From positions 1-59,922 of IMG/VR virus record IMGVR_UViG_2974632988_000001: DNA of 59,922 nucleotides; one strand, given 5' to 3'. Within the stretch, counting starts at the first letter, position 1. Each line of letters starts with the position of its first letter. Positions 18,263 to 44,927 of this stretch are shown here, piece by piece. Below the pieces are notes generated by a model. The model ran no database searches, was not told where the DNA came from, and was given only the letters and a program-made list of their open reading frames with translations. This DNA comes from a virus. Taxonomy: Duplodnaviria > Heunggongvirae > Uroviricota > Caudoviricetes > Herelleviridae. The translations under genes were made by a program, and so were the position numbers.

Positions 18263-18584
18263 GGATTGATTATGTTCAGCTTGTTTAAAATACTACGATG
18301 TGACCACGACTTTCATTATGTATCAACAGAAATGGTACCAGATACATCCGGTGTTGTATACTCTTATACAGAGAAGATTCATATTTATTGCCCTAAATGT
18401 AAAAGGAAGAAGACGGTACGCTCGTGGGAGTGGACGAGAATAGAAGCTAGACAACAGATTGATATAGCCTACAGACAAAACAACAAAGGAGAGTAGAAAA
18501 TGCTCTCTTTTTCTTAAAAAAACTTGTTGACTTTAAGTAAAAGGTAGTGTAATATAAAGGTATAACAAAGAGGAGGTAATACAG

Positions 18585-25303: not shown

Positions 25304-25969
25304 CAGGTCGCTTCTCCTTTACTTATTATATCTATACATGCAAATAATACAATACAGAATATTCATTGCTCCGAAAAATTTTCGTATTTTATTGTTGACT
25401 TTAAGTTAATGATGGTGTATTATAAAGGTATAACAAAGAGGAGGTAATACATATGTTTAATTTATTCGTAGGGTTCGTGCTAATATGGTGTGCTATTCAC
25501 AATGATATGAATAGAGGGAAGGATGGGAAGGCGTTAACGACATTGTTAATCTTCATGGCTATTCTCAATATATGTATAGGGGTGTTCTAATGGTAAATAT
25601 ATGGGCAGGTTCTATGCTTATGTTTATGCCGATGTTGTTCTTGGTCGATATGATAATGGATAGTATAGAAGCTTATAAAGGGTGGGAGATGCGTATAATA
25701 CCTAGATTAGTAATAGCAGCTATTATATCTGTCCTTATAATAAGTGGTATAGACTGTATGGCATTATGCGTGAGGTAATGTTTACGTTTAAGATGCGTTT
25801 AATTTAGGTTAAAAAAATTTTTGTGAAAAATTTGAACCCCGGGTAGGCGGGAGGTAGGTACCATCCCCGAACATATGGTCTATAAAGCACGGGGTGGGTT
25901 ATATCTATGAAATTGAATATAGAAAAGGGTTGACAAAATAATACTTGACAAACTAGCATATTCATGGAA

Positions 25970-26173
25970 TCAAATATAGATGACTTTAGCTCCTTCACTC
26001 ATACGCGTTCGCCTTTCCTCTGTCCGTCTCTTCATTGCTATTGACTTAGTAGCGCATATATGCTCACGTACCAGTAGACCGTCGAATGTATGGACTGTAA
26101 ACCTCCAGTTGCCTGTATAGAGTTTGACGGGCTTATCAATGATATACGTATCACTAGTATAGTATAAGCTCAT
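25970..26173 (-). CDS. Small early protein (start corrected to ATG 26173)
   Basis: GGAGGTGA RBS before MSLYYTSD; last gene of the minus-strand block. Confidence 0.65.
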   Translation of the reverse strand: MSLYYTSDTYIIDKPVKLYTGNWRFTVHTFDGLLVREHICATKSIAMKRRTEERRTRMSEGAKVIYI

Positions 26174-26520
26174 GCTCTCACCTCCATCGCATATTGAGTG
26201 ATAGTATTGCATGCGCTATAGGACGCTTGCGCTAGGTGTGATAGTCCAACGCTCGTGACTCTATCGCCTATATAGATTCCATGATATACCTTCTTAATAC
26301 GGCTCTCAATGAATTGCATTTCAATAGCTATAATATCATTGCGCGTGTCATTGAAAGCGCCGTCTATAAGCTCACTAGCCTTAGTCAATCTATCGTTAAT
26401 ATCATTGACAATATCAGTAGTATATGCAATGCCCTGCTCCCACTGGTCGGCTAGATAGTTAGCGTAATTAGCAATCCCTTTTAATTCAATAATAGCAAGC
26501 TCCATTTTAGCAGTTAACAT
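26170..26520 (-). CDS. Early hypothetical protein (start corrected to 26520)
   Basis: AGGAGCTGTTTATT-ATG leader shared with neighbouring early genes. Confidence 0.75.
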   Translation of the reverse strand: MLTAKMELAIIELKGIANYANYLADQWEQGIAYTTDIVNDINDRLTKASELIDGAFNDTRNDIIAIEMQFIESRIKKVYHGIYIGDRVTSVGLSHLAQASYSACNTITQYAMEVRA

Positions 26521-26545
26521 AATAAACAGCTCCTTTATATAATAA

Positions 26546-26731
26546 TTATGAATATATTTCATCTTCAAATACTTGTAATTCTTCACCAGTTGACAAACGT
26601 ATAATATACATGACAACCCCGTCGAACGCGTCATACTCATTAGCGTTCATCGGTCTAACTAATGTAAAAGTCTTTCCATTATGCATAAGCAAGTCACTTT
26701 GATTAGTATTGAATACATTATTTAATTTCAT
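26546..26731 (-). CDS. Small early protein
   Basis: Same AGGAGCTGTTTATT-ATG leader. Confidence 0.75.
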   Translation of the reverse strand: MKLNNVFNTNQSDLLMHNGKTFTLVRPMNANEYDAFDGVVMYIIRLSTGEELQVFEDEIYS

Positions 26732-26764
26732 AATAAACAGCTCCTTTTAAATTGTCAGAATATT

Positions 26765-27268
26765 CTAGCAAGTATATACAAATACCTGTTCGCTAATATC
26801 ATATGTACGCTTTAATTTAGTACGCATAGCACGAGCATGTTTTAGAGCGTCCTTTTCATTATAGAATGTGCCAAATGTAGGATAGATAGATTCGCCGTTG
26901 TCAAGTACAATTTGAACCTCACAGTCGTATACCTCTGCTCCGTCCTCTTCTGTGTTATATACAGCGACCTTTACGTTTTCAATTTCTTCGTACCATTGCC
27001 CTTTTAATTCATCCGCGATAGCCTCTTTAAGCTCCTTAAGAGTCTTTAGGCTATTAGGTGCCTTTTCAGTTTGGACAACCTCTGCTTCGATTAACTCAAC
27101 CGTTGCATGATGCATAATCACATGATAGATATCAACTTCATTTTCAATCCAAAAGTGAGTTTGACCTTTAGAGAAATCCATAACTTTACCCTCTAATACA
27201 CGACCACTATTGAAAGTAACTTTTACCTCTTGACCTAATTCTAATTGACCCATTTCTAATGTTTTCAT
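26765..27268 (-). CDS. Early acidic hypothetical protein
   Basis: GGGAGCTGTT leader; promoter TTGACT(27325-30)-17-TATAAT(27302-07). Confidence 0.8.
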   Translation of the reverse strand: MKTLEMGQLELGQEVKVTFNSGRVLEGKVMDFSKGQTHFWIENEVDIYHVIMHHATVELIEAEVVQTEKAPNSLKTLKELKEAIADELKGQWYEEIENVKVAVYNTEEDGAEVYDCEVQIVLDNGESIYPTFGTFYNEKDALKHARAMRTKLKRTYDISEQVFVYTC

Positions 27269-27432
27269 ATCTCAACAGCTCCCTTTTCTTAAGTTAATTT
27301 TATTATAATATGTACTTTACTAAAAGTCAACAACTATTTTCAACTCGTTGTCGCTCGCTTTAACTAACCTTATCTTAATACTATTATACGCAATTGACAA
27401 GCCCTTTATGACAAATAATTAAAGTTTAAATT

Positions 27433-28330
27433 TTCTGAATATTCGTACTAGTATAACCTGTCTAAATTATCAGAATATTCATAATAAACTTTTAAATTTA
27501 CTTATATATAATAGTATGATAGAATCACGCGCACCTGCTCATACATGCATATATAGAAACTTTTAAATTGTCAGAATATTCAATTAGTCAGAATATTATA
27601 ATTACTTTCCATACCACAAAACTTCAAATCTGTCAAACTTATTTTAAAGGCTCTCAGAAGCCCGTAGAGGCGTTTTAACCTATCCCCCTAGTATTTGTAT
27701 TAGGAAGCCTTCTAAAAGCTCATACAAGAGAAATAGCCCCTCAAACTAGTAATACCAAGGCTTCCCGCTTTCATAGAATCCATGTAAATTGTCAGATAAT
27801 AAGAATATTCTAAATAGTCAGAACATTAACGCAATTCAAACAGCTCCCTATATATACCACAACCTATTATATATGTCAAGTTAATTATGTATTCAGAATT
27901 GTCATACTATTCGTACAACTGCTCCAATCATAAATATTACCATTTGTCAAGTTAATTATATATTCTAAATTATCTGACTATTTAGACAACTATCCTAAAG
28001 TATTTAGAATTATCAGAATATTATGCAAATTATAATAAGTATAGTTATCTGACTATTCTGTCTATTGCAGCAGCATGAACCGTCCTAATTGTCAGACTAT
28101 TCTGCACATTATAATCATTCTCTTATTATATATAATAAAGTTATCTGATAATTGCGAATATTCTAAATAGTTTTACTTCTTTTCATCTCTTGCATTTCAT
28201 CTCTTTTTACTTTAACATACGTGTTAGACAAATGAACGTTTAGCAAGCTGTATATAATATTCTGACAACTTACACATCTTACTATTAGGATATAACCTTC
28301 ATGTTTTCAGAATTGTCAGTCTATTATATA
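27433..28330. repeat. Cluster of ~15 degenerate palindromic sites, consensus TT(G/A)TC(A/T)GA(A/C)TATTCTGACAA
   Basis: Copies near 27433, 27467, 27568, 27585, 27789, 27800, 27815, 27899, 27970, 28010, 28045, 28089, 28141, 28256, 28313; outliers at 25354, 26752, 37772. Confidence 0.85.
27664..27725. other. Imperfect long hairpin with TATTTGTAT loop, copy 1 (copy 2 at 33884-33944)
   Basis: Arms GTAGAGGCGTTTTAA / CTAAAAGCTCATAC; inner CCTA/TAGG stem around the conserved loop. Confidence 0.6.
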
Positions 28331-28368
28331 TAAGGCGTTTGTTTGTCAAGTGGATAAGAGATATAGTG

Positions 28369-28402
28369 AAGACTAGTATTCCAGCGGGCTACTAGTCTTT
28401 TT
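28369..28402 (+). terminator. Terminator-like hairpin
   Basis: AAGACTAGTA/TACTAGTCTT 10-bp stem followed by a T run. Confidence 0.7.
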
Positions 28403-28615
28403 GTGTTATTTGTAGTTGACTACTTACATTTCAACCTTATAATATATGACTCTATTAAACCCCGCGCCCCGCCTCCTCTTATAGATGCAACTTATATACT
28501 CTAGTGTGAGCAGGGCATCAAATTCAAAAGCTGGGGCTTGGATTATTTTTTTTTGTAAGGCTTTATTTTTTGTAAGGCTTTAACCTTTTCAAATTGTTAT
28601 TATATATAATAAACT

Positions 28616-28783
28616 TTAGCCTTTATATAGTACACTCTCTTTAAATTCAGTAACTATACTTTGAACAATAAGAGGTGAGAGCGTCTTTTCTAGTCCTTTT
28701 ATATACTGTAGTAATGTTTCCGACTCTCCTTTATTATATATAGAATACATCTCATGTAATATACCTTCTCTGTTATAATTCAT
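28616..28783 (-). CDS. Small protein, 55 aa (not in ORF track)
   Basis: AAAGGAGC RBS; MNYNREGILHEMYSIY... Confidence 0.65.
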   Translation of the reverse strand: MNYNREGILHEMYSIYNKGESETLLQYIKGLEKTLSPLIVQSIVTEFKESVLYKG

Positions 28784-28804
28784 TATATAAAGCTCCTTTT
28801 TTAT

Positions 28805-29005
28805 TTATAGTATTGTTGTATCCTCTATGCCTACAATATCCTCATTAGGTATATATCTATTTGTTAACCTTCTATGTTTATATATAGCTAGTTTTGTTAT
28901 ATTTGCGTTTACCTCTACAATCTTTCCACTTATCTTATATGTTTTATTACTCACTATTACATCTAGTGTTACATGTCTATTTATATATCTTTCCATGTCT
29001 AACAT
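28805..29005 (-). CDS. Small Sm/SH3-like beta protein
   Basis: AGGAGCTGT leader; alternating beta pattern. Confidence 0.65.
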   Translation of the reverse strand: MLDMERYINRHVTLDVIVSNKTYKISGKIVEVNANITKLAIYKHRRLTNRYIPNEDIVGIEDTTIL

Positions 29006-29020
29006 TATATACAGCTCCTC

Positions 29021-29200
29021 TTATAGTATTATGTATTCTATATCTATTTTAAAGTAACTCACTGTACGTTTAATAGGTTTATCAGGTGATTCTCTTAAGA
29101 ATAGTATAACATCATTACTTGTATACATAGCACTATCTATATAATATATGTTTCCGTCTTTATGTTGAACTCTCTTCCCTGCTAACTCTTTCATGTGCAT
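29021..29200 (-). CDS. Small protein, 59 aa (not in ORF track)
   Basis: AAAGGAGC RBS; MHMKELAGKRVQHKDGNIY... Confidence 0.65.
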   Translation of the reverse strand: MHMKELAGKRVQHKDGNIYYIDSAMYTSNDVILFLRESPDKPIKRTVSYFKIDIEYIIL

Positions 29201-29232
29201 TATTTAATAGCTCCTTTATTATATATTATATA

Positions 29233-30914
29233 TTAGTCTTTATAGTATATGAGTATGCTTGTTATCATTTCTACTTTACTTTGAATGAAGTCATATATTT
29301 CCATTGTTATTTCTGATTCTATATGATATGTCGTGTGAAAGTCTAAGTTATTACATTGTACATACCCCTCATACTTATATGTTTCATTGTTATACATAGC
29401 GCTTATAACCGTTTCAATATGTTTTAACTTTACTCTGTATCTATATGAGCCTATTGTGTCCATTTCCATTTCTTCTACAATGTAGTCAGTACCTTTTGTA
29501 AATTCTTTTGCGATAAGTTCACAGTTTCTTTTATATATTTCTTTACTGGATAAGAATGTCATTATATTACATCTCCTCTATATTTAACTCAATCATAGTC
29601 ATGTAGCTATTAATAGGTATTACAAAGTGTTTGATATTCATTTCTTCTAGTGTGCTTTCCATTTCGTTTACATCATCCGGTTTTATATACACTCTTCCAT
29701 CTTCTAATAATATTTTAACCTTTTCATGTAGTTTCATTTTAAGCCTCCTCTCCGTCCGCTGTGTGCGTTCTGTGTTTATAGAATGCATTGTATAGTTCAT
29801 CGGCTTTAACGCCTGTCACGTAGTTGTTATTTGCGTTATCCGGCTCATGTGGGTAGTCTTCGAACTCTTCACCAATATCTCTGATATAGTCGTCACCGTT
29901 GTAATCCCCTAATAGTAATGAAATGGTATTCAATTCCGCTTGTGATAGTACAGCAATGTAACGCCCTTTTTCAACCGCTTCTATTTTAGCCATTGTTTTT
30001 CCTCCTCTAATTGGATAGTTATATATTAAAAACTAATTGCAAATACTTTGTATCCTTTTTCTGTCACTAAGTAACTTTCCGCCTGTTCTATTGTATTATA
30101 ATGAGACTCACAGACTTGTAAAGCCTCTTCTTTAGAAATAGCCTCGCCTATATCCTGTTCGCAATTCTCGAAAATAGCTGTTATAATATACATTTATTTT
30201 TCCTCCTTTAGTTGTTCTGCTAACTCTATAATTTCTTTTCTACTCAAGTAAATTGATTTATAATCATATCCATCTTTTGCGAGTGGGTTCAATTGATTGA
30301 TTTTAACCATATTATGTTTACTATCTATGTGTACGCACGTTGTTTCATTCACGTCTATTCTAGTCATTATTGTTGACTCCTTCCATTCTGTTTAGTATTT
30401 CATAGCGTGTATAATCTTGTAAAATGTATCTTCCCTCGTGTTTCCATCCTTTTGAAATCCATCTTTCTAACTTTTCGTAGTAGTGTAATAATTCTTTGTT
30501 TGTTAGGTCTTTTAGTTGACTTCCCTTTATAATAGCGCTCTCCGGTACGTTAAACCCTTCGTTCTCTTCTTTTAGTCTTGTAAATACCTTTTTAGTCATT
30601 ACTTAAACCTCCTCATAAGGTGAATAGTCCGTATTAATATTATATGTTTTAATAACTTGTTCTAACGCTACAAAGAAAACATCTTTACTAGTTGTAATGG
30701 TTGTATGTTCTTCACCGTTTGAACCTAGTTTATAATTAGCAAAGATTTTAAATTCATTTTGATTGTTTCCGTTAATCTTAAATGATACAATCACGTCATT
30801 ATCAGGGTGACCGATATAATATTGATGCGCTAATGTTAACCAGTGATATTTTAGCCCTAATTCTTGGAATGTATCTTCTAAAAAATTTCTCATACCTGTA
30901 TATGTTACTTTCAT
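29233..30914 (-). other. Early operon of 7 small CDS (30603-30914, 30360-30599, 30194-30367, 30026-30193, 29739-29993, 29567-29737, 29233-29562)
   Basis: Driven by the repeat promoter at 30980. ORFs abut with GGAGG RBSs; two were read by hand (57 aa and 55 aa). Confidence 0.7.
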
Positions 30915-31004
30915 AATAAAACATCTCCCTTTAATTTGTTTTTTTAACTTAATTTCATTTTAAACCTTTATTTACTGAAAGTCAACAACTTTTTAAAATT
31001 TTAT

Positions 31005-31136
31005 TTATTCCTCGTTTAAACAGTCTTCACATGCATTACATGACCAACAATAACGACAACCGCAACCATTACCACTAGTATCACCACAATCACAACAATT
31101 GTATATTTTTTCGCAATCACACATTTTCTTTTCCAT
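31005..31136 (-). CDS. Cys-rich metallothionein-like microprotein, 43 aa with 11 Cys (not in ORF track)
   Basis: MEKKMCDCEKIYNCCDCGDTSGNGCGCRYCWSCNACEDCLNEE; GGGAGCTG RBS. Confidence 0.75.
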   Translation of the reverse strand: MEKKMCDCEKIYNCCDCGDTSGNGCGCRYCWSCNACEDCLNEE

Positions 31137-31150
31137 TTGTACCAGCTCCC

Positions 31151-31333
31151 TTATTTAACCTTTTCTAACTCACATTGTTTAGCATATGTTACCAAACCAC
31201 CAGATATAACTTTAATCATAGGTAGTTTATCAACTGCACATACCGTGTTATTAGAAATACCGACAACCAACCAAACTCGGTTTTTATTTCCGTCCATGTA
31301 TACCTCATCACGTAAATTAAACATGTTTACCAT
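31151..31333 (-). CDS. Small SH3/KOW-like cassette protein
   Basis: First gene behind the repeat at 31379; AAGGGGG RBS. Confidence 0.7.
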   Translation of the reverse strand: MVNMFNLRDEVYMDGNKNRVWLVVGISNNTVCAVDKLPMIKVISGGLVTYAKQCELEKVK

Positions 31334-31387
31334 CCCCCTTATTAAGTTACCCTCATTGTATCATGTATGTTTTCTAAAAGTCAACAA

Positions 31388-31741
31388 CTATTTACAATTT
31401 CTTTTTAATCCTTTTAAATAGTCCATACCAGCAAATGTTAAACGTATTTTAGTTTTCTTATGTCTCCCTTTTGCTGATATAGTCACGTAACCTTGTTTTT
31501 CTAACTCGTATGCAATAGCGTAAAATTGGTTTATGTCTTGTATGTTAGATTTATGATAAGCGCTGTGAATACTTATAGACTGATATGCAGAGTTCTTTTT
31601 CAGATGAGAAGCTCCACAACAAATCATTTCCATTGTATCCCCTCTTTCCAAACCCTCTGCTATAATCATTTTGTTATGTTCTTGTTGTTTTCTAACAGCC
31701 TTCGCAACCCCTAACAATACGATTAAGTTATTCTTGTTCAT
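31388..31741 (-). CDS. Winged-helix-like cassette protein
   Basis: C-terminal YELEKQGYVTISAKG..IRLTFAGMDYL wHTH pattern; its TAG stop lies inside the next repeat. Confidence 0.65.
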   Translation of the reverse strand: MNKNNLIVLLGVAKAVRKQQEHNKMIIAEGLERGDTMEMICCGASHLKKNSAYQSISIHSAYHKSNIQDINQFYAIAYELEKQGYVTISAKGRHKKTKIRLTFAGMDYLKGLKRNCK

Positions 31742-31816
31742 TCACAGCGCCCCCTAATTAATAAGTTCATTTATCTTACTTATAATATTAAAGGGTTATT
31801 ATCCAAAAGTCAACAA

Positions 31817-32884
31817 CTATTTAAAAGTTATTTCGCCCTTCTTTGTATCGATTTCTTTTATTTCATCCTCTATTAGTCTTGTAACGGCTTTTTGCGTCGC
31901 TGATACACCTTTATTGTATCCTATTATGTAAGTACTATAACCGGCACTAACAACGCATGTAAGCCCTATAGCACCTGTTATAATGATTTCGTTAATATCC
32001 ATTGTAATTACTTCCTACTGTTTCTTGTCTCATTGCTGATATTATATTAACTATTGATTGCTCTTCATAATCATTGATTTCTCTCATCATATCATTAAAT
32101 TCTAGGTAACGCCCGCTTGTTAGTAACATAGCAAGCCTCCTCCCTGTATCCCATTCACTAACATTAATAACATCACTAGGTTGTAATGTCCCGTATTTAA
32201 ACTTATACATTACTTTTCACCCTCTTTCTTATCAATTTCTTTTTGTAATGCTACAATTAACTTTTTCGCTCCATGTGTACCGACTTTACTTAAAATCTTT
32301 TTTGCAAACTCTGTATACGTACCGATGATAATACTTTTCATTTTAATTTTCCCCCTTTAATACTCTAATAAGTGAGCTTAATTGTTTTAATTGCAATTCT
32401 ACTGTTAACATATGAGAGTATAGAGCTTTAATTTCACGTTGTACCGCGTTTTCTAGTTCTGTCTCTCCTTTATAGTAGAATTTTCTTTCTTTTGCGTTCT
32501 CCATTTGCATTTCTAAAAGCTCTTTTGTGCTTTCCATTGTGATTAGGTTTTCTTCCAATAGCTCAACCGCGTTCATTGTTTTGTAGTCCATATTCCCCGC
32601 CCCCTGCATTATGCTTTTGGTAGACTTTCCATATATTCATAATATTCTTTTTCCACTTCGTCAAGTCGCTTTTGTGCCTCTTCTCTTGTGTTGAATCCAT
32701 CTTCTATAACTTCACATCCACTAGAAATAACGTATTCACTATTATCATAAGGTAGTGTGATATCGCCTTCCAACCAAGTAACCTCTAAAGGCTCTTCGTC
32801 AAGCCCTTCTTCTCTTAATTCTCGGTTAATATCCTCTACATTTCTAAATACATTTTTCCATTCTTCAAAAGTTAATCTTTCCAT
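31817..32884 (-). other. Cassette operon of 5 small CDS (32609-32884, 32343-~32600, 32210-32341, 31992-32210, 31817-32002)
   Basis: Behind the repeat at 32940. The last gene has a TM helix and ends in the TAG of the next repeat. Confidence 0.7.
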
Positions 32885-32954
32885 TTATAACAGCTCCCTT
32901 TATTTAAGTTAATTTCATTTTAAACTATTGTTTTCTAAAAGTCAACAACTATTT

Positions 32955-33236
32955 TTAACGTTGTATTAAAGTTATTTTTTGATGGAATAATACCGCCATT
33001 TCTTGTAATTCTGTTAAAGGGTTTTCACGTCCCCAACGTTTAAACAGGTCATTAACTTCGATTGAAATGTAATCAATATCATTTTCAAATAAATCAGCAA
33101 TTTCTCTCAATGTTACACGCTCTACATCAACCAGCATATAAAATTCCATTCCACCAGTTAATAATTTTAACGTTGTACCCTTCGTAATTTCAATTTTATT
33201 TAATAAATTCATTTCTGCTTTTTCAACCGCGAACAT
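32955..33236 (-). CDS. Single-gene cassette, hypothetical
   Basis: Own repeat promoter at 33291. Confidence 0.75.
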   Translation of the reverse strand: MFAVEKAEMNLLNKIEITKGTTLKLLTGGMEFYMLVDVERVTLREIADLFENDIDYISIEVNDLFKRWGRENPLTELQEMAVLFHQKITLIQR

Positions 33237-33305
33237 AGTTAACAGCTCCCTTATTTAAGTTACTTTCATCATAATATGTATTTTACTATAAGTCAACAAT
33301 TATTT

Positions 33306-34292
33306 TTATACTAGTTGAATCGTACCGTTTGCCGTTACAATACCAACCCGGGGATTATTATATTTAAAGCCCCTTTTTATATTGTTAGCCTCTTTCATAG
33401 TATCGAACCCTAAAGCATTGCTTAAATATTGTGTCCAATAACCGCCCTTACTGATATTTCTGTCTTGAAAGTATACAATCTTTTTAGAACTCTTACCGTC
33501 GGTAATCACGACGAACTTTCCAGCTAACTTTTTAATCCTATTCTTTCTATCTTCCTTTATGCCTGTAATACGTGTCATTTCTTCGACCCACATGTCACGG
33601 TCTGCCATTTGTCCGCCTATGTCTTCCCCACCATCTAATGCCCAACCCATATTAAACGCCCCCTTACATCTCTTTTTCGATTTCTTTTATAGCATCCTCT
33701 AAACCGTTAATTTTACCAATTGCTTTATAAATCTTGCTATCTTTCCACGGGTAAAAACTTCTTTCAATCTTTTCCGCGTCGTCAAGCTCTATTCTAGCCT
33801 TTTCTAATTCACTTTTTAAAATATCAATTGCTTTTTCCATTTATAACACCTCTATTGTTTACTTTAAGACTCCTCACAGTCTCGTACAGCGTTTTAACTT
33901 TAATTCTAGACTATTTGTATTAGAAAGGGTTAAACGCTCTGTATGAGCGCCTAACACCCTTTAAACTGGTGTATTTTATAACTATTGATATTAATAGCCG
34001 TGTAACCTCCGTCCGCTAATGCCTCCGTTAATGTCTCTGTTAAAGGGTAAAACGTGATTTGCTCAAGGTGAATATCTTCTACAAAGTTCTCTTTAGATAC
34101 ATAGCCTTGCATGTCGCTGTAATCAATATCAATGTAATCATATCCCGCCACCAATTCAAGGTCAAAAACAAAGCCTATTGCCGAACTATCTAATTGACGG
34201 TATGATTCAACTTTATAAATAAGTTTATCCTCTGATATTACATGTAATTCGCCTCTTAATCCGTTTTGTGAATAATAATTGTAGTTTGTCAT
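33306..34292 (-). other. Cassette of three CDS (33951-34292, 33664-33840, 33306-33650) with an internal hairpin
   Basis: Repeat promoter at 34349; hairpin 33884-33944 sits between gene 1 and gene 2. Confidence 0.7.
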
Positions 34293-34384
34293 TATAAAAC
34301 ATCTCCCTTTATTTAAGTTACTTTCATTTTAAACCTTATTTTACTAAAAGTCAACAACTATTTTTAAAGTTGGGAACCTCCTTT

Positions 34385-34642
34385 TTAAAGGAAGTCCCTT
34401 TCATTATGTCCCGCCTCTGACATAGCGCGCTCATTTGCAGTATTAAAGCGTTTAGCCTCTTCTCTTTCTGCCTCTTCTAACTCGCGTTGTAAGTCGCCAA
34501 TCTTATCAAGTGCAAAAGAGATTTCGTGTTCAAAGTGGTCAAGACCCTCTTTAGTTGTTTCTAACTTATGCATGATAGACAGGTCTTCGAGAATATCACG
34601 CCACTTTTCCAAGTCATCTAGAATGTATTCAATATCTCGCAT
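34385..34642 (-). CDS. Single-gene cassette, acidic helical protein
   Basis: Own repeat promoter at 34695; AAGGGGG RBS. Confidence 0.75.
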   Translation of the reverse strand: MRDIEYILDDLEKWRDILEDLSIMHKLETTKEGLDHFEHEISFALDKIGDLQRELEEAEREEAKRFNTANERAMSEAGHNERDFL

Positions 34643-34703
34643 GATGTAACCCCCTTATTAAGTTACCCTTATTGTACCATGTATGTTTTCTAAAAGTCAA
34701 CAA

Positions 34704-35582
34704 TTAATTTTCGATACAAATTCCTTGTTCTGCTAAATGCTCTAATACTTCACTTTCGTTGTTAAATCTATCTATTGACCCATTAAACTCTTCTATACCG
34801 TAATAACTTACAACGTCAATGACTTTAATTTCGTCGCGGTCTGTTACGTCGCATGTAGTTTCTACAGCGTTCCAATCAATCCAACTATCATTTAAATCTA
34901 TATAAGCCGCCTCTACCATGAAACCATCTTCACCACATGCATTATACATATTAATGACTTTAACGTAGTAATAACACTTTTCAAGCGGGTAATCGCTATC
35001 TTTTTTAATAAAGTCGCCTCCATGTTCTAACGCGTCCACGTCTCCGTAATTCGTCCAGCTTGCATCTTTATTAATTTTACCTTTGAATCCTGTAATGACA
35101 CGTTTCGCTATATCTTCTAGTTCTTCCATATAACTATTATTATCAATATCACCTATTTCATGCTCTATACATGCATCTAGTTCGTCAATATCTAGCTTTT
35201 CACGTTGTTCATATGTTAGCCCCTCAACCCATTTATTAACGATGTTAGCAACGTAATTATAGTATAGTGACGTTTCATTGTTATATAATAGTTGTGTAAA
35301 GTATTGGTAATACCCTGCTCTATAAAAGTTTTCTAACTCTACTCTCTGTCCTCGCGGTGTCTCACATAAACCCTGTGCAATAGCCTCTTCAATGTATTCT
35401 TTTATTTTTGGTACACCTTCCCATAATTCTTTTGTGTAAATAGGTGTAAAGTTATCTGCAATTTCGGTGATAGCGTCGCATGCATAAGTTGAACCGTCGT
35501 ACTCGTAAAATGATTCTAATACGTCAATATCAAAGTCTAACGCCTCTAAAGTATCGTATTGCGCTAATGTTAATTGTTTCAT
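34704..35582 (-). CDS. Ocr-like DNA-mimic (anti-restriction) domain plus a second acidic C-terminal domain
   Basis: DAITEIADNFTPIYTKELW resembles T7 Ocr [19 protein letters not shown] (recalled); very acidic; own repeat promoter at 35638. Confidence 0.6.
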   Translation of the reverse strand: MKQLTLAQYDTLEALDFDIDVLESFYEYDGSTYACDAITEIADNFTPIYTKELWEGVPKIKEYIEEAIAQGLCETPRGQRVELENFYRAGYYQYFTQLLYNNETSLYYNYVANIVNKWVEGLTYEQREKLDIDELDACIEHEIGDIDNNSYMEELEDIAKRVITGFKGKINKDASWTNYGDVDALEHGGDFIKKDSDYPLEKCYYYVKVINMYNACGEDGFMVEAAYIDLNDSWIDWNAVETTCDVTDRDEIKVIDVVSYYGIEEFNGSIDRFNNESEVLEHLAEQGICIEN

Positions 35583-35738
35583 TATAAAACATCTCCCTTT
35601 TTTAAGTTACTTTCATTTTAACTCTTTATTTACTGAAAGTCAACAACTATTTAAAATTTATTTTAGTTGCTACCCACGGGGGATAAACCCCGCGACGCTG
35701 TGAGCCTAAAGCCTGTTTATAGTCGCTCACACGACTTT

Positions 35739-36101
35739 TTACTCTTCGTCTTCCTCTTCGTCCTCTTCGTCCTCTTCGTTCGCGTCGTATTCCTCCTTTA
35801 ATGCCTCTATTTCATCGCTATAGATATGCCCCGCGATTTCGTCCCACTCAATAAGAGATAGGTCAAGGAAGTCTTTTAAGAATGTGCTTAAGTTGTCAAG
35901 CTCCTCTTCTAAAACAGAATCCAACCATTCTTCGCAATCTTTTTCAATTTCATATTTAATATCGTTTTCCGTTTCTGATAGGTCAAGGTTGCCGTTTTCC
36001 GCGTTATCTCTCACGAACTCGCTTAAAGATTCCCCAAAATGTAAGTTAACCAACCATGTTTCTCTATTCGCCCATCCATTATAAGTATTTACGTTTGTCA
36101 T
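35739..36101 (-). CDS. YNGWxNRETWLVNL-family protein with poly-acidic tail
   Basis: N-terminal motif is common in phage/MGE early genes; ends EEDEEDEEEDEE; own repeat promoter at 36169. Confidence 0.75.
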   Translation of the reverse strand: MTNVNTYNGWANRETWLVNLHFGESLSEFVRDNAENGNLDLSETENDIKYEIEKDCEEWLDSVLEEELDNLSTFLKDFLDLSLIEWDEIAGHIYSDEIEALKEEYDANEEDEEDEEEDEE

Positions 36102-36177
36102 TTTAAATTCCTTCTTTCATATTTTTTATTTTGTTTCTGTAATCAGTGTATCATGTTCATTTCCTAAAAGTCAACAA

Positions 36178-36333
36178 CTATTTTTTAAGTAATATCGGTA
36201 ATCTTTTCATCATGTCGAACCATAAAGAGTTTCCATTTTTAAAAGGAGATTCCACTATTTTATAGTTAATTCTCATTTTAGTTCTAACTGGGAAAAATTT
36301 AACCTCTGTTCTATATACATCATATCTTTCCAT
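36178..36333 (-). CDS. Single-gene cassette, basic 51-aa protein (not in ORF track)
   Basis: Repeat promoter at 36389 with GGGAGCTGTT leader; MERYDVYRTEVKFFP...; TAG stop supplied by the next repeat. Confidence 0.7.
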   Translation of the reverse strand: MERYDVYRTEVKFFPVRTKMRINYKIVESPFKNGNSLWFDMMKRLPILLKK

Positions 36334-36501
36334 AATTAACAGCTCCCTTTATTTAAGTTAATTTCATTTTAAACCTTATTTTACTAAAAGTCAACAACTA
36401 TTTTTAAAAGTGTACGATTGCGTATGATATCCCGCGCCCCACCAGAAACAAGAAACCAACAATAACCAATACTTTTAATGAGCCTCTGAATGACATATGT
36501 T

Positions 36502-36672
36502 TTATTCCTCCTCTAATACTCTTTTTACTTTTAAAACATCTTCTAACATGTATTGTAGCGTTACCTCTGTACTAATAGTACCGCCGTTCTCAATAATACT
36601 GATTAAATCTTTTAAGCGTCTTTCTACTATATTTAGGTTAATACAAGCAAGTGATTTATCTATCGCTTTCAT
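36502..36672 (-). CDS. Single-gene cassette, 56 aa (start corrected to ATG 36672)
   Basis: AAGGGGG RBS within the repeat at 36727; the track's longer start lies in the promoter itself. Confidence 0.7.
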   Translation of the reverse strand: MKAIDKSLACINLNIVERRLKDLISIIENGGTISTEVTLQYMLEDVLKVKRVLEEE

Positions 36673-36735
36673 ATGTAACAGCCCCCTTATTAAGTTACCC
36701 TCATTGTAGCATGTGTGTTTTCTAAAAGTCAACAA

Positions 36736-37035
36736 CTATTTATTAAATTTCATTCTAATTGTTTTCAACGTCTTTCCAAGCATAAACGTTTCAATTTTTA
36801 AATATGCATTATACTCTTTTAATAGTTCTAATAGCTCTGGTACGTCAACAACGTCTATCTGGTGACCTTGTAAATTAATTTGTTCTATAGTAATTAAATC
36901 CCACTCATTACTAGTAACAAGCAAACCTCTTCCATATCTATATTTCCCTTCGTGGCTTAGTGTGTACCCGTCACGTTTTAACGTAGCTTTTACACTACGT
37001 AACATACCGCCTAAAGTTTTAAATTGTTTAGCCAT
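36736..37035 (-). CDS. Single-gene cassette, hypothetical
   Basis: Repeat promoter at 37090; TAG stop lies in the next repeat. Confidence 0.75.
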   Translation of the reverse strand: MAKQFKTLGGMLRSVKATLKRDGYTLSHEGKYRYGRGLLVTSNEWDLITIEQINLQGHQIDVVDVPELLELLKEYNAYLKIETFMLGKTLKTIRMKFNK

Positions 37036-37100
37036 AATAAACAGCTCCTCTTTTTAAGTTACTTTCATTCTAATAGTTATTTTACTAAAAGTCAACAACT

Positions 37101-37319
37101 TTATGCATCGAAATTTAATTTTAATGAAAAAGTGTATTCGTGAAATTGATAATTGTAGTTAATACCATCGGTTAACCACTCTACAAGCTCCTCTACGCTA
37201 TCAACCTTTAAAAACATTTCTGTTACTAAGAAGTGAGGCGCATCGGTAATGTAATGCTTTGTAACGCCTCCCTCTGTAATAGGTATAATCATGTTTGCAT
37301 CCATTAATTTTAAACTCAT
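37101..37319 (-). CDS. Single-gene cassette, hypothetical
   Basis: Repeat promoter at 37374 carrying the TGATAC-N4-GTATCA operator. Confidence 0.75.
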   Translation of the reverse strand: MSLKLMDANMIIPITEGGVTKHYITDAPHFLVTEMFLKVDSVEELVEWLTDGINYNYQFHEYTFSLKLNFDA

Positions 37320-37342
37320 GTTTACCAGCTCCCTTATTAAGT

Positions 37343-37639
37343 TGATACCATCGTATCATATTCGTTTACTTTAAGTCAACAATTATTTTGAATCCTTTTT
37401 ATTTATTGTAATTTCAAGCCCTAAAGCGTCTAGAACTTTGAATAATGTAGTTAGTGTGCATTCTCCGCCTTTTGAAATGCTGTTAATTTTATACGAATAT
37501 ACTTTTTCTGTTTTCGCCTCTACTTTTCTATAGGAAATCTTTTGTTTCTTCATTTCCGCTGTTATCGTATCGCCTACATATTTGTGAGTGTTTGCCATTG
37601 CAAAACACCGCCTCTCTTTAAGTTGATACCATCGTATCA
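37343..37639. promoter_or_regulatory. Two perfect TGATAC-CATC-GTATCA inverted repeats (37343-37358, 37624-37639) overlapping -10 boxes
   Basis: Identical 16-mers in the HTH gene's own promoter and in the next cassette promoter. Confidence 0.7.
37383..37598 (-). CDS. XRE/Cro-like helix-turn-helix regulator (start corrected to ATG 37598)
   Basis: ITAEMKKQKISYRKV...INSISKGGECTLTTLFKVLDALGLEITI; GAGGCGG RBS. Confidence 0.75.
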   Translation of the reverse strand: MANTHKYVGDTITAEMKKQKISYRKVEAKTEKVYSYKINSISKGGECTLTTLFKVLDALGLEITINKKDSK

Positions 37640-37824
37640 TGTAATTCACTAAAAGACAACAACAAATTTATATATTTTTCGTTTTTCGTGTTTCTTCCTA
37701 TATAAAGAAAAATAGGCTTTTCGTTTTCCTTCTATATAAGGGGACTTTTTTCACTTTGTAACGTTTATCAATTGTCAGAATATTTTAATCGTTATATCGC
37801 ACTTGCCGGGCGTGGCTTTTTGTG

Positions 37825-44689: not shown

Positions 44690-44927
44690 TATAATTCCTC
44701 CTCTTTATCTTATACCTTTATATTACACTATCATTTACTTAAAGTCAAGAACTTTTTTAGTCATTTACTTAAATCCTTTTGTTCTTTTTGCTAACTCACC
44801 CTCCGCTAACTCTAGCATATTACGATAGTAGTCATCCATAGGCTCACCTTCATCAACCTTGTCCCTATAGAAATCGATGTACATTAGTAAATTCTCTGTA
44901 GGCATATTCTCGAAATCTACTGGGCTA

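Follow-up and report, generated by a model that had tools for sequence, protein, structure and literature searches.

An array of 31 small genes under 14 copies of a repeated promoter-leader unit runs from position 37598 down to 28616 on the minus strand of a 59,922-nucleotide stretch of phage DNA (IMG/VR record IMGVR_UViG_2974632988_000001, positions 1 to 59,922; hereafter the window), and a fifteenth unit heads a four-gene operon in the adjoining long terminal repeat (LTR). The array is probably an early host-takeover or hyperplastic region of the SPO1 type, in which the repeats are regulatory first and only occasionally, in second place, recombination substrates. Shared function and common descent seem to be the main reasons why the units resemble one another. 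On infection, host RNA polymerase would fire all of them together, and the transcripts should read through toward the genome end, since no terminator accompanies the units. The array is a familiar kind of element, a set of early genes with promoter-leader units in a Herelleviridae phage, in an undescribed place; a literature search including papers on Bastillevirinae turned up no account of this array or its repeats in B4-like phages.

Judged by its DNA matches, the phage is a B4-like Bequatrovirus (Bastillevirinae, Herelleviridae) from among the phages of the Bacillus cereus group; the top matches to the region are all Bacillus phages of this genus. Any one relative covers at most 43% of the region, split into 14 pieces. 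The assembly is a single contig of 162,598 bases with one copy of the terminal repeat and represents a 99%-complete genome. In Flapjack and Spock, the matching stretch stops at the annotated 2.8-kb right terminal repeat, and the LTR limits of the window (~25841-28600) were borrowed by homology from the annotation of these two phages. Their position places the array just inside the right genome end and transcribed toward that end. The last unit (P27330; units are named after the first base of their -35 box) falls within the LTR, the other 14 next to it on the side of the genome interior. Nine of these 14 head a single gene, two head two genes, and one each heads three, five and ten genes. The count given in a first-pass annotation of the letters, 15 repeats before about 30 small genes with nine single-gene units, was correct (15 minus-strand units, 27330-37659).

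Each unit is a composite of three parts, namely an A/T-rich 5' edge that usually bears the stop codon of the preceding gene, a near-consensus sigma-A promoter, and a leader that extends to the ATG. The 21-mer AAAATAGTTGTTGACTTTTAG, with up to 3 mismatches allowed, has 23 matches in the window against 0 expected from shuffles, and 15 of the 23 lie on the minus strand at 27320-37669. The -35 boxes of the units begin at 27330, 30985, 31384, 31813, 32945, 33296, 34354, 34700, 35643, 36174, 36394, 36732, 37095, 37379 and 37659. The promoter reads TTGACT (once TTGTCT), a spacer of 17 or 18 nt opening with TTTAG(T/A)AAA, and then TAnAAT, and its hexamers share 9-11 of their 12 letters with the sigma-A consensus. 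Along the first 108 kb of the genome, the extended -35 half (AAAAAGTTGTTGACTTTWAGTAAA) recurs on either strand in some 15 further promoter-like sites, so this half appears to be the general early sigma-A promoter consensus of the phage. The earlier idea that the repeat is something special beyond a promoter consequently applies to its leader and not to its -35 half. All three subfamilies that had been noticed were recovered: a single mismatch in 66 nt separates P34354 from P36394 (exact runs of 47 and 18 nt), 31384, 34700 and 36732 share 77-86% identity, and 37379 and 37659 have an identical core of 23 nt.

For comparative purposes, the window was set beside 12 relatives (loci L001-L012), with genes and promoters called alike in all 13 phages and proteins clustered into families. 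The stop codon of the upstream gene lies within 22 nt of the -35 box in 136 of 183 units, most commonly 6 or 12 nt before it, and stops in all three frames occur within 22 nt in 93 of the 183 (13 +/- 3.4 in shuffled 22-mers). With the preceding stop codon so close to the -35 box, the unit has no room for a stem-loop. Terminator stem-loops of the kind found in early-promoter stem-loop (PeSL) cassettes were considered and rejected, as a terminator scan of the array returned 4 terminator-like sites against 4.1 expected and none at a unit. On the array's coding strand, the sole hairpin that resembles a terminator (33929-33955, minus strand) overlaps the stop of gene 33951..34292 in the three-gene unit. 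Two RNA runs (X20 and X22), which share a species label with DNA runs containing the stretch, gave 0 reads of this DNA, and soil metatranscriptomes contained 5-6% of its sequence words.

The part of the unit that is confined to the array is the leader. Its class I form (GAAAGTAACTTAA..AAGGGAG(C/A)TGTT) measures 28-33 nt, ends at the ATG and is conserved at 80-90% of its columns. All 13 AACTTAA leaders of the 162.6-kb genome are located at 27330-37659 on the minus strand. The common leader reported earlier thus holds for 13 of the 15 units, the leaders of 31813 and 36174 being different. A box formed by the Shine-Dalgarno (SD) sequence and (C/A)TGT precedes 145 of 190 promoter-headed and 66 of 199 promoter-less array genes at the loci of the 13 phages, and only 1 of 220 genes of the flanking DNA that the loci include beyond family 0/53. 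In Bastille, a phage of another genus (locus L013), the -35 box is AAAAAGTACTTGCAATACT and the -10 box is extended, yet AACTTAA..AAGGGAGATGTT..ATG is kept. Since Bastille pairs the same leader with a different promoter, the leader predates the promoter type. Its conservation across genera, behind different promoters and before different genes, points to a function and not to hitch-hiking. Units of the Bequatrovirus type were also sought in Bastille itself; strict and loose pattern scans returned none, and the upstream regions showed a related unit with another -35 box. This unit is repeated at L013 9600-16100 (minus strand) as AAAAAGTACTTGCAATACT..ATGGTAAGAT, and behind it stands the shared leader AACTTAA..GGGAGATGTT. 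A leader hairpin enclosing the SD (AATTAAC..GTTAATT in P36394) was discarded, with a helix length of 3.16 against 3.11 with shuffled partners and 122 of 500 shuffles reaching the observed value. Outside the array, a second class of promoters has a leader of its own, TAATATAAAGGTATAA(C/G)A..AGGAGG, and a -10 box that is often TG-extended; its members are located at 18527 and 25395 (plus strand) and at 44748, 47846, 48790 and 50237 (minus strand). Early promoters joined to a leader thus come in at least two classes in this phage.

Gene content differs widely among the relatives. Each phage has 26-34 array genes and 11-19 promoters, and the 13 arrays together hold 74 gene families, 37 of them restricted to at most three phages and 18 present in at least ten. 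Their order is near-colinear (mean Kendall tau 0.958), with 1.7% of shared family pairs inverted, mainly involving families 9 and 33. Turnover is therefore a matter of gain, loss and replacement in place on a fixed backbone, and the shuffling that had been envisaged does not describe it. The earlier view of a hypervariable and presumably early accessory array of a B4-like phage was upheld, with cassette-sized gains, losses and replacements separating the relatives. By the evidence of these alignments, gene content turns over gene by gene, at gene borders; 214 of 252 homology ends (85%) fall in gene junctions, which make up 26% of the bases, and both types of junction are affected.

Junctions that carry a unit hardly stand out among the others. 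Homology ends per border averaged 8.1 at 14 promoter borders and 5.9 at 17 promoter-less ones (p=0.21), and the index of distinct upstream neighbours was 0.248 for 13 promoter-headed and 0.215 for 18 promoter-less families (p=0.26). In pairwise comparison, 43.6% of the promoter-headed and 38.2% of the promoter-less junctions differed. The divergence of neighbouring genes was correlated with a mean rho of 0.59 across promoter junctions (n=5) and 0.65 across others (n=12; p=0.48), and 22 of 37 rare families were promoter-headed compared with 9 of 18 core families (p=0.57). Even the operon of ten genes that has no internal promoter (28616..30914) is mosaic among relatives to the same degree as other parts of the array. 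One of the genes in this interval (29233..29562) has 88-91% DNA identity to Bastille, Goe5, CAM003, Hoody T and others, with its neighbours unmatched there (29198-29584) and the breaks at its SD and just beyond its stop; judged from the alignment, this looks like a recent exchange of a single gene between genera. Turnover is just as frequent at borders that lack a unit, so it seems neither to need the repeats nor to favour them, and the claim of the first-pass annotation that they delimit mobile units was not borne out. When breakpoints were compared across relatives, gene content proved far from invariant, but among gene borders the breakpoints were near-random with respect to the repeats.

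The history of the units themselves is largely one of inheritance. When two phages have a gene family in common, the units before it are 85% identical; the figure for units before different genes is 65%, alike in one phage or in two, and in a paired test of 101 family pairs the within-minus-between genome difference was 0.001 (50 up, 51 down). Each promoter variant has thus been inherited with its downstream gene, with no homogenisation within genomes. Concerted evolution or gene conversion of the repeats within a genome was rejected on these averages, although single patchy cases exist. Clear hybrid promoters make up 5 of 183 units. P5 of vB_BcgM and Beyonphe has the promoter (5' half of P9) that heads gene 9 in other phages, Chotacabras P31 bears the 5' half of P19, and Spock P77 that of P8. 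Homology was lost near or at the -10 box in 20 of 92 junction contrasts.

Individual events can be read from the contigs of X1 and X4, two relatives that stand closer, aligned on the window. In both, a 281-base skip (37336->37618) removes the cassette of a helix-turn-helix (HTH) protein, and the 23 letters that fit both sides are the core shared by P37379 and P37659. X4 further has a promoter-to-promoter joint (34321->32913) with 13 letters shared, and X1 has extra DNA at P30985 with the unit on either side. Other joints involve no repeat: X1 is cleanly without gene 32609..32884, whose promoter now heads the next gene, and in the X1 and X4 contigs 260 nt have been replaced at 28790-29003, and DNA is lost at 26214-26539. 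The apparent joints 27423->33873, 31002->36157 and 33894->37764 were set aside as cross-matches, their short sides of 22-23 letters lying in repeated motifs. Going by these sequences, homologous exchange between two units is the explanation for some events. To that extent, the earlier proposal of a recombination-driven array is justified by the hybrids and the 281-bp indel; as a general account it is unlikely, since the promoter-less borders are equally variable.

In its full form, that proposal would make the repeats the engine of cassette mobility, as suggested for the PeSLs of T4-type phages, with general homologous recombination between units excising, inserting and swapping promoter and gene together, possibly via circles, and driving most of the variability. 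The hybrid promoters of vB_BcgM, Chotacabras and Spock, the breaks at the -10 box, and the two joints with 23 and 13 shared letters are what such an engine would leave behind. Spacer alleles common to several units also suit it, as does the 5' edge with stops in three frames, which would make the unit a self-sufficient adaptor, and PeSL cassettes provide a precedent in which some crossovers fall in the stretch from the -10 box to the SD (PMC2839356). We nevertheless regard it as unlikely, given that each of three separate tests showed promoter-less borders to be equally variable, rare genes do not have a promoter of their own more often than others, gene order is colinear, units are not homogenised within genomes, the closest relatives show several events whose joints contain no repeat, and the PeSL stem-loop is absent. 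The regulatory reading that we prefer also has points weighing against it. The junction test has modest power (13 versus 18 families; 14 versus 17 junctions), every point estimate leans slightly to promoter junctions, and the events are not independent, the 13 phages being related. Identical 17-nt spacers stand before different genes, with 21 alleles each found before at least two families, and the unit before family 8 differs between JarJar and Troll by 8 spacer mismatches with 0 in the 46 flanking promoter nt. The shared spacers and the JarJar/Troll case may mean that units exchange more than the averages reveal, and exchange borne by the repeats is undercounted, because crossovers in the invariant repeat core leave no trace. 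Moreover, promoter activity and timing are predicted from sequence.

The conservation of the leader might be due to a dedicated factor, a protein of phage or host or a nuclease, that acts on the AACTTAA (~+5 to +12) and (C/A)TGTT parts of the leader and would switch the whole gene set off or boost it together. This would add to the regulatory reading and not replace it. The confinement of the leader to the array, the conservation of its columns and its retention in another genus behind a different -35 box are all in keeping with such a factor, and so is the SD box on a third of the promoter-less array genes, rare as it is in flanking DNA. Operator-like TTGTCAGAATATTC sites (see below) bracket the array, one array gene encodes an HTH protein, and shutoff of early genes is known in SPO1 (PMC6873191). 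On the other side, no factor was identified, the leader is without conserved structure, and a strong translation start could by itself account for part of the conservation, so that we consider a dedicated factor possible but doubtful. A broader combination would join a selected, self-sufficient adaptor, the class I unit with its three-frame stop, promoter, leader, SD and ATG, to circle-borne exchange of ORFans among Bastillevirinae, a timing factor that reads the leader, and a ribozyme that insulates the anti-restriction unit; we think it improbable that all of this holds. If it did, the units would be uniform enough for whatever small gene was inserted to be expressed immediately, exchange between units, including circles like those of T4 PeSL cassettes, would pass ORFans among co-infecting Bastillevirinae, and the pistol ribozyme described below would shield the anti-restriction unit from upstream read-through. 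A site-specific, integron-like system, whose recombinase takes the repeats as attachment sites and captures cassettes, has next to no chance of being the answer. What it has in its favour is a superficial likeness, an array of short, mainly single-gene cassettes separated by a repeat. An integron has IntI, whereas profile searches with Pfam PF00589 and PF00239, in which the controls responded, found neither a tyrosine nor a serine recombinase in the 99%-complete genome. Integron attC sites are hairpin-folding inverted repeats, whereas the units are direct, promoter-like repeats with no hairpin beyond chance (the leader helix barely departs from its shuffled partners, as given above). Integron cassettes are read from one common promoter Pc, here replaced by 14 promoters for 31 genes, and integron joints lie at one fixed point while those of the array are spread across the unit. 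Without a recombinase, with direct repeats and with an own promoter for each cassette, the array is not an integron, and the term integron-like used in the first-pass annotation is an analogy only.

Followed 5' to 3' along the minus strand, the array begins with unit P37659 (37596..37681; TTGTCT-17-TACGAT, leader GGTATCAACTTAA), which ends at the ATG of a 71-aa HTH DNA-binding protein (37383..37598; phrog_8522) present in 5 of 13 phages, its family being absent from 8 of the 12 relatives. Unit P37379 (37317..37401, class I leader) heads a 72-aa acidic protein found in all 13 phages (37101..37319; phrog_9050), and unit P37095 (37033..37117, class I leader) a 99-aa basic protein (36736..37035; phrog_7856). 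Two genes of 56 and 30 aa (36404..36672) follow P36732 (36670..36754), a class I unit with an 18-nt spacer and a TG-extended TACAAT, and a 51-aa basic protein (36178..36333; phrog_10796) follows the class I unit P36394 (36331..36416). P36174 (36099..36196) has the usual -35 half but a different 43-nt leader outside class I, and it heads a 120-aa acidic DUF7249 protein (35739..36101) shared by 2 of 13 phages. Beyond a ribozyme, class I unit P35643 (35580..35665) precedes a 292-aa acidic protein with an Ocr-like N-terminal domain and a second domain (34704..35582), which occurs in all 13 phages. P34700 (34640..34722), of class I with an 18-nt spacer, heads an 85-aa acidic protein (34385..34642; phrog_6492) annotated as a 'DNA mimic domain' in two relatives.

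The remaining units head more of the longer operons. P34354 (34290..34376, class I) is followed by three genes of 113, 58 and 114 aa (33306..34292), P33296 (33234..33318, class I) by a 93-aa protein present in 2 of 13 phages (32955..33236; phrog_15423), and P32945 (32882..32967, class I) by five genes of 91, 82, 43, 72 and 61 aa (31817..32884), the first of which is 32609..32884. P31813 (31739..31835), again with the usual -35 half and another leader outside class I, heads a 117-aa basic protein with a weak match to a transcription regulator (31388..31741; phrog_11046). P31384 (31322..31406, class I, 18-nt spacer) precedes two genes of 57 and 43 aa, the latter with 11 Cys (31005..31324), and P30985 (30912..31007), a variant of class I that has AAGTTAA and whose leader is longer, precedes the ten-gene operon without internal promoters (28616..30914). 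Class I unit P27330 (27266..27352), within the LTR, heads the LTR operon of four genes of 167, 61, 116 and 67 aa (25970..27268).

The 31 array proteins have a median length of 72 aa and include 12 of 60 aa or less; the isoelectric point is below 5 in 13 and above 9 in 8. The earlier description of the cargo as acidic, tiny or DNA-binding mostly fits, with Ocr-like, HTH and Cys-rich members among it, while most families have no known function. The Ocr-like anti-restriction domain (PHROGs phrog_2568, E 3.5e-29) takes up the first 168 residues of the 292-aa protein (match over residues 2-168). Beyond it, the HTH protein and the weak regulator match, most proteins fall in PHROGs families with no assigned function and two match none; DUF7249 is the sole real Pfam match among the array proteins. 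Two adjacent open reading frames at 30194-30599 (minus strand), of 79 and 57 aa, correspond to the C-terminal and N-terminal halves of phrog_14830 (118 positions), which may mean that a gene has been split or frameshifted, or that fused and split forms of the family coexist. Analogy with SPO1 (PMC6873191) makes it plausible that the cargo serves in anti-defence or host takeover. The array offers a compact catalogue of about 74 small families of presumably early genes in 13 phages infecting the Bacillus cereus group and, with most of these families lacking a known function, is a reasonable place to seek host-takeover and anti-defence proteins.

The only long gap of the array, between the DUF7249 gene and unit P35643 of the Ocr-like gene, is occupied by a pistol self-cleaving ribozyme (RF02679) at 35668-35736 on the minus strand, which scores 71.4 bits against a gathering score of 34.5 and matches the full model (positions 1-68). 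It begins beyond the stop of the DUF7249 gene and has a predicted cut at 35673/35672, where it would cleave read-through RNA nine bases before the unit of the Ocr-like gene begins. All 12 relatives (L001-L012) have one copy at the matching place (65.9-74.2 bits); in Chotacabras, the ribozyme is separated from the Ocr-like gene by one additional cassette. Pistol RNAs occur near phage genes and in phage genomes, and their biological role is open (PMC4604425, PMC6765202). A fixed position in a putatively early phage array provides a concrete setting in which the role of this ribozyme class could be tested.

Around the terminal repeat, the operator-like site TTGTCAGAATATTC (up to 2 mismatches) has 12 matches in the window against 1.1 expected. 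Ten of them are located at 26752-28268, most in the gene-free LTR stretch 27350-28600, and one lies at 37772-37785, just upstream of the first array promoter. Being clustered at the LTR end and represented once before the first promoter, these sites bracket the array. The gene-free stretch also contains, at 28416-28443 (plus strand), a near-consensus promoter TTGACT-16-TATAAT (11/12) followed by a C/G-rich run, CCCCGCGCCCCGCCTCC; it is directed away from the LTR genes, with no open reading frame after it.

Among known systems, the PeSL cassettes of T4-type phages (PMC2839356, PMC4122927) resemble the array in their repeated early promoters of the sigma-70 type, the A/T-rich upstream part, the setting in an ORFan-rich variable region, and the lack of a dedicated recombinase. 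In both, a number of indel joints carry hybrid units, with some of the crossovers placed between the -10 box and the SD. In contrast to the array units, however, where the stop codon of the gene before is only 3-12 nt away from the -35 box, PeSL cassettes have a stem-loop or terminator, and host and phage family are unrelated. Some indel joints of the array fall in units but show no clear preference for them, promoter-less borders being equally variable. The PeSL idea is often invoked for such arrays, and our results advise caution here: since repeat-less borders behave alike, a striking promoter repeat at cassette borders is no proof of repeat-driven shuffling. Closer in kinship is Kayvirus, of the same phage family, one member of which has 58 early sigma-70 promoters (PMC7698491). 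In laboratory mutants of Kayvirus 812, a 2-kb indel is bordered by a direct repeat over SD and ATG, GGAGGTTAATTWATGAA (PMC6445280), so that short translation-start repeats act as joints there as they seem to do in the array; those joints were seen experimentally, whereas the SD/ATG joints of the array are deduced from natural isolates. The best match is SPO1's module for host takeover (PMC6873191). The array differs from it in that only the last unit lies within the 2.8-kb LTR and the others adjoin it toward the genome interior, in the uniform leader fused to the promoters, and in its one pistol ribozyme. Both are clusters of small early genes at the genome end of a Herelleviridae phage, with functions that are mostly unknown or host-directed, early expression of the array being suggested by its sequence. 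Both are likewise divided into many short operons, each equipped with a strong host-type promoter and a strong ribosome-binding site.

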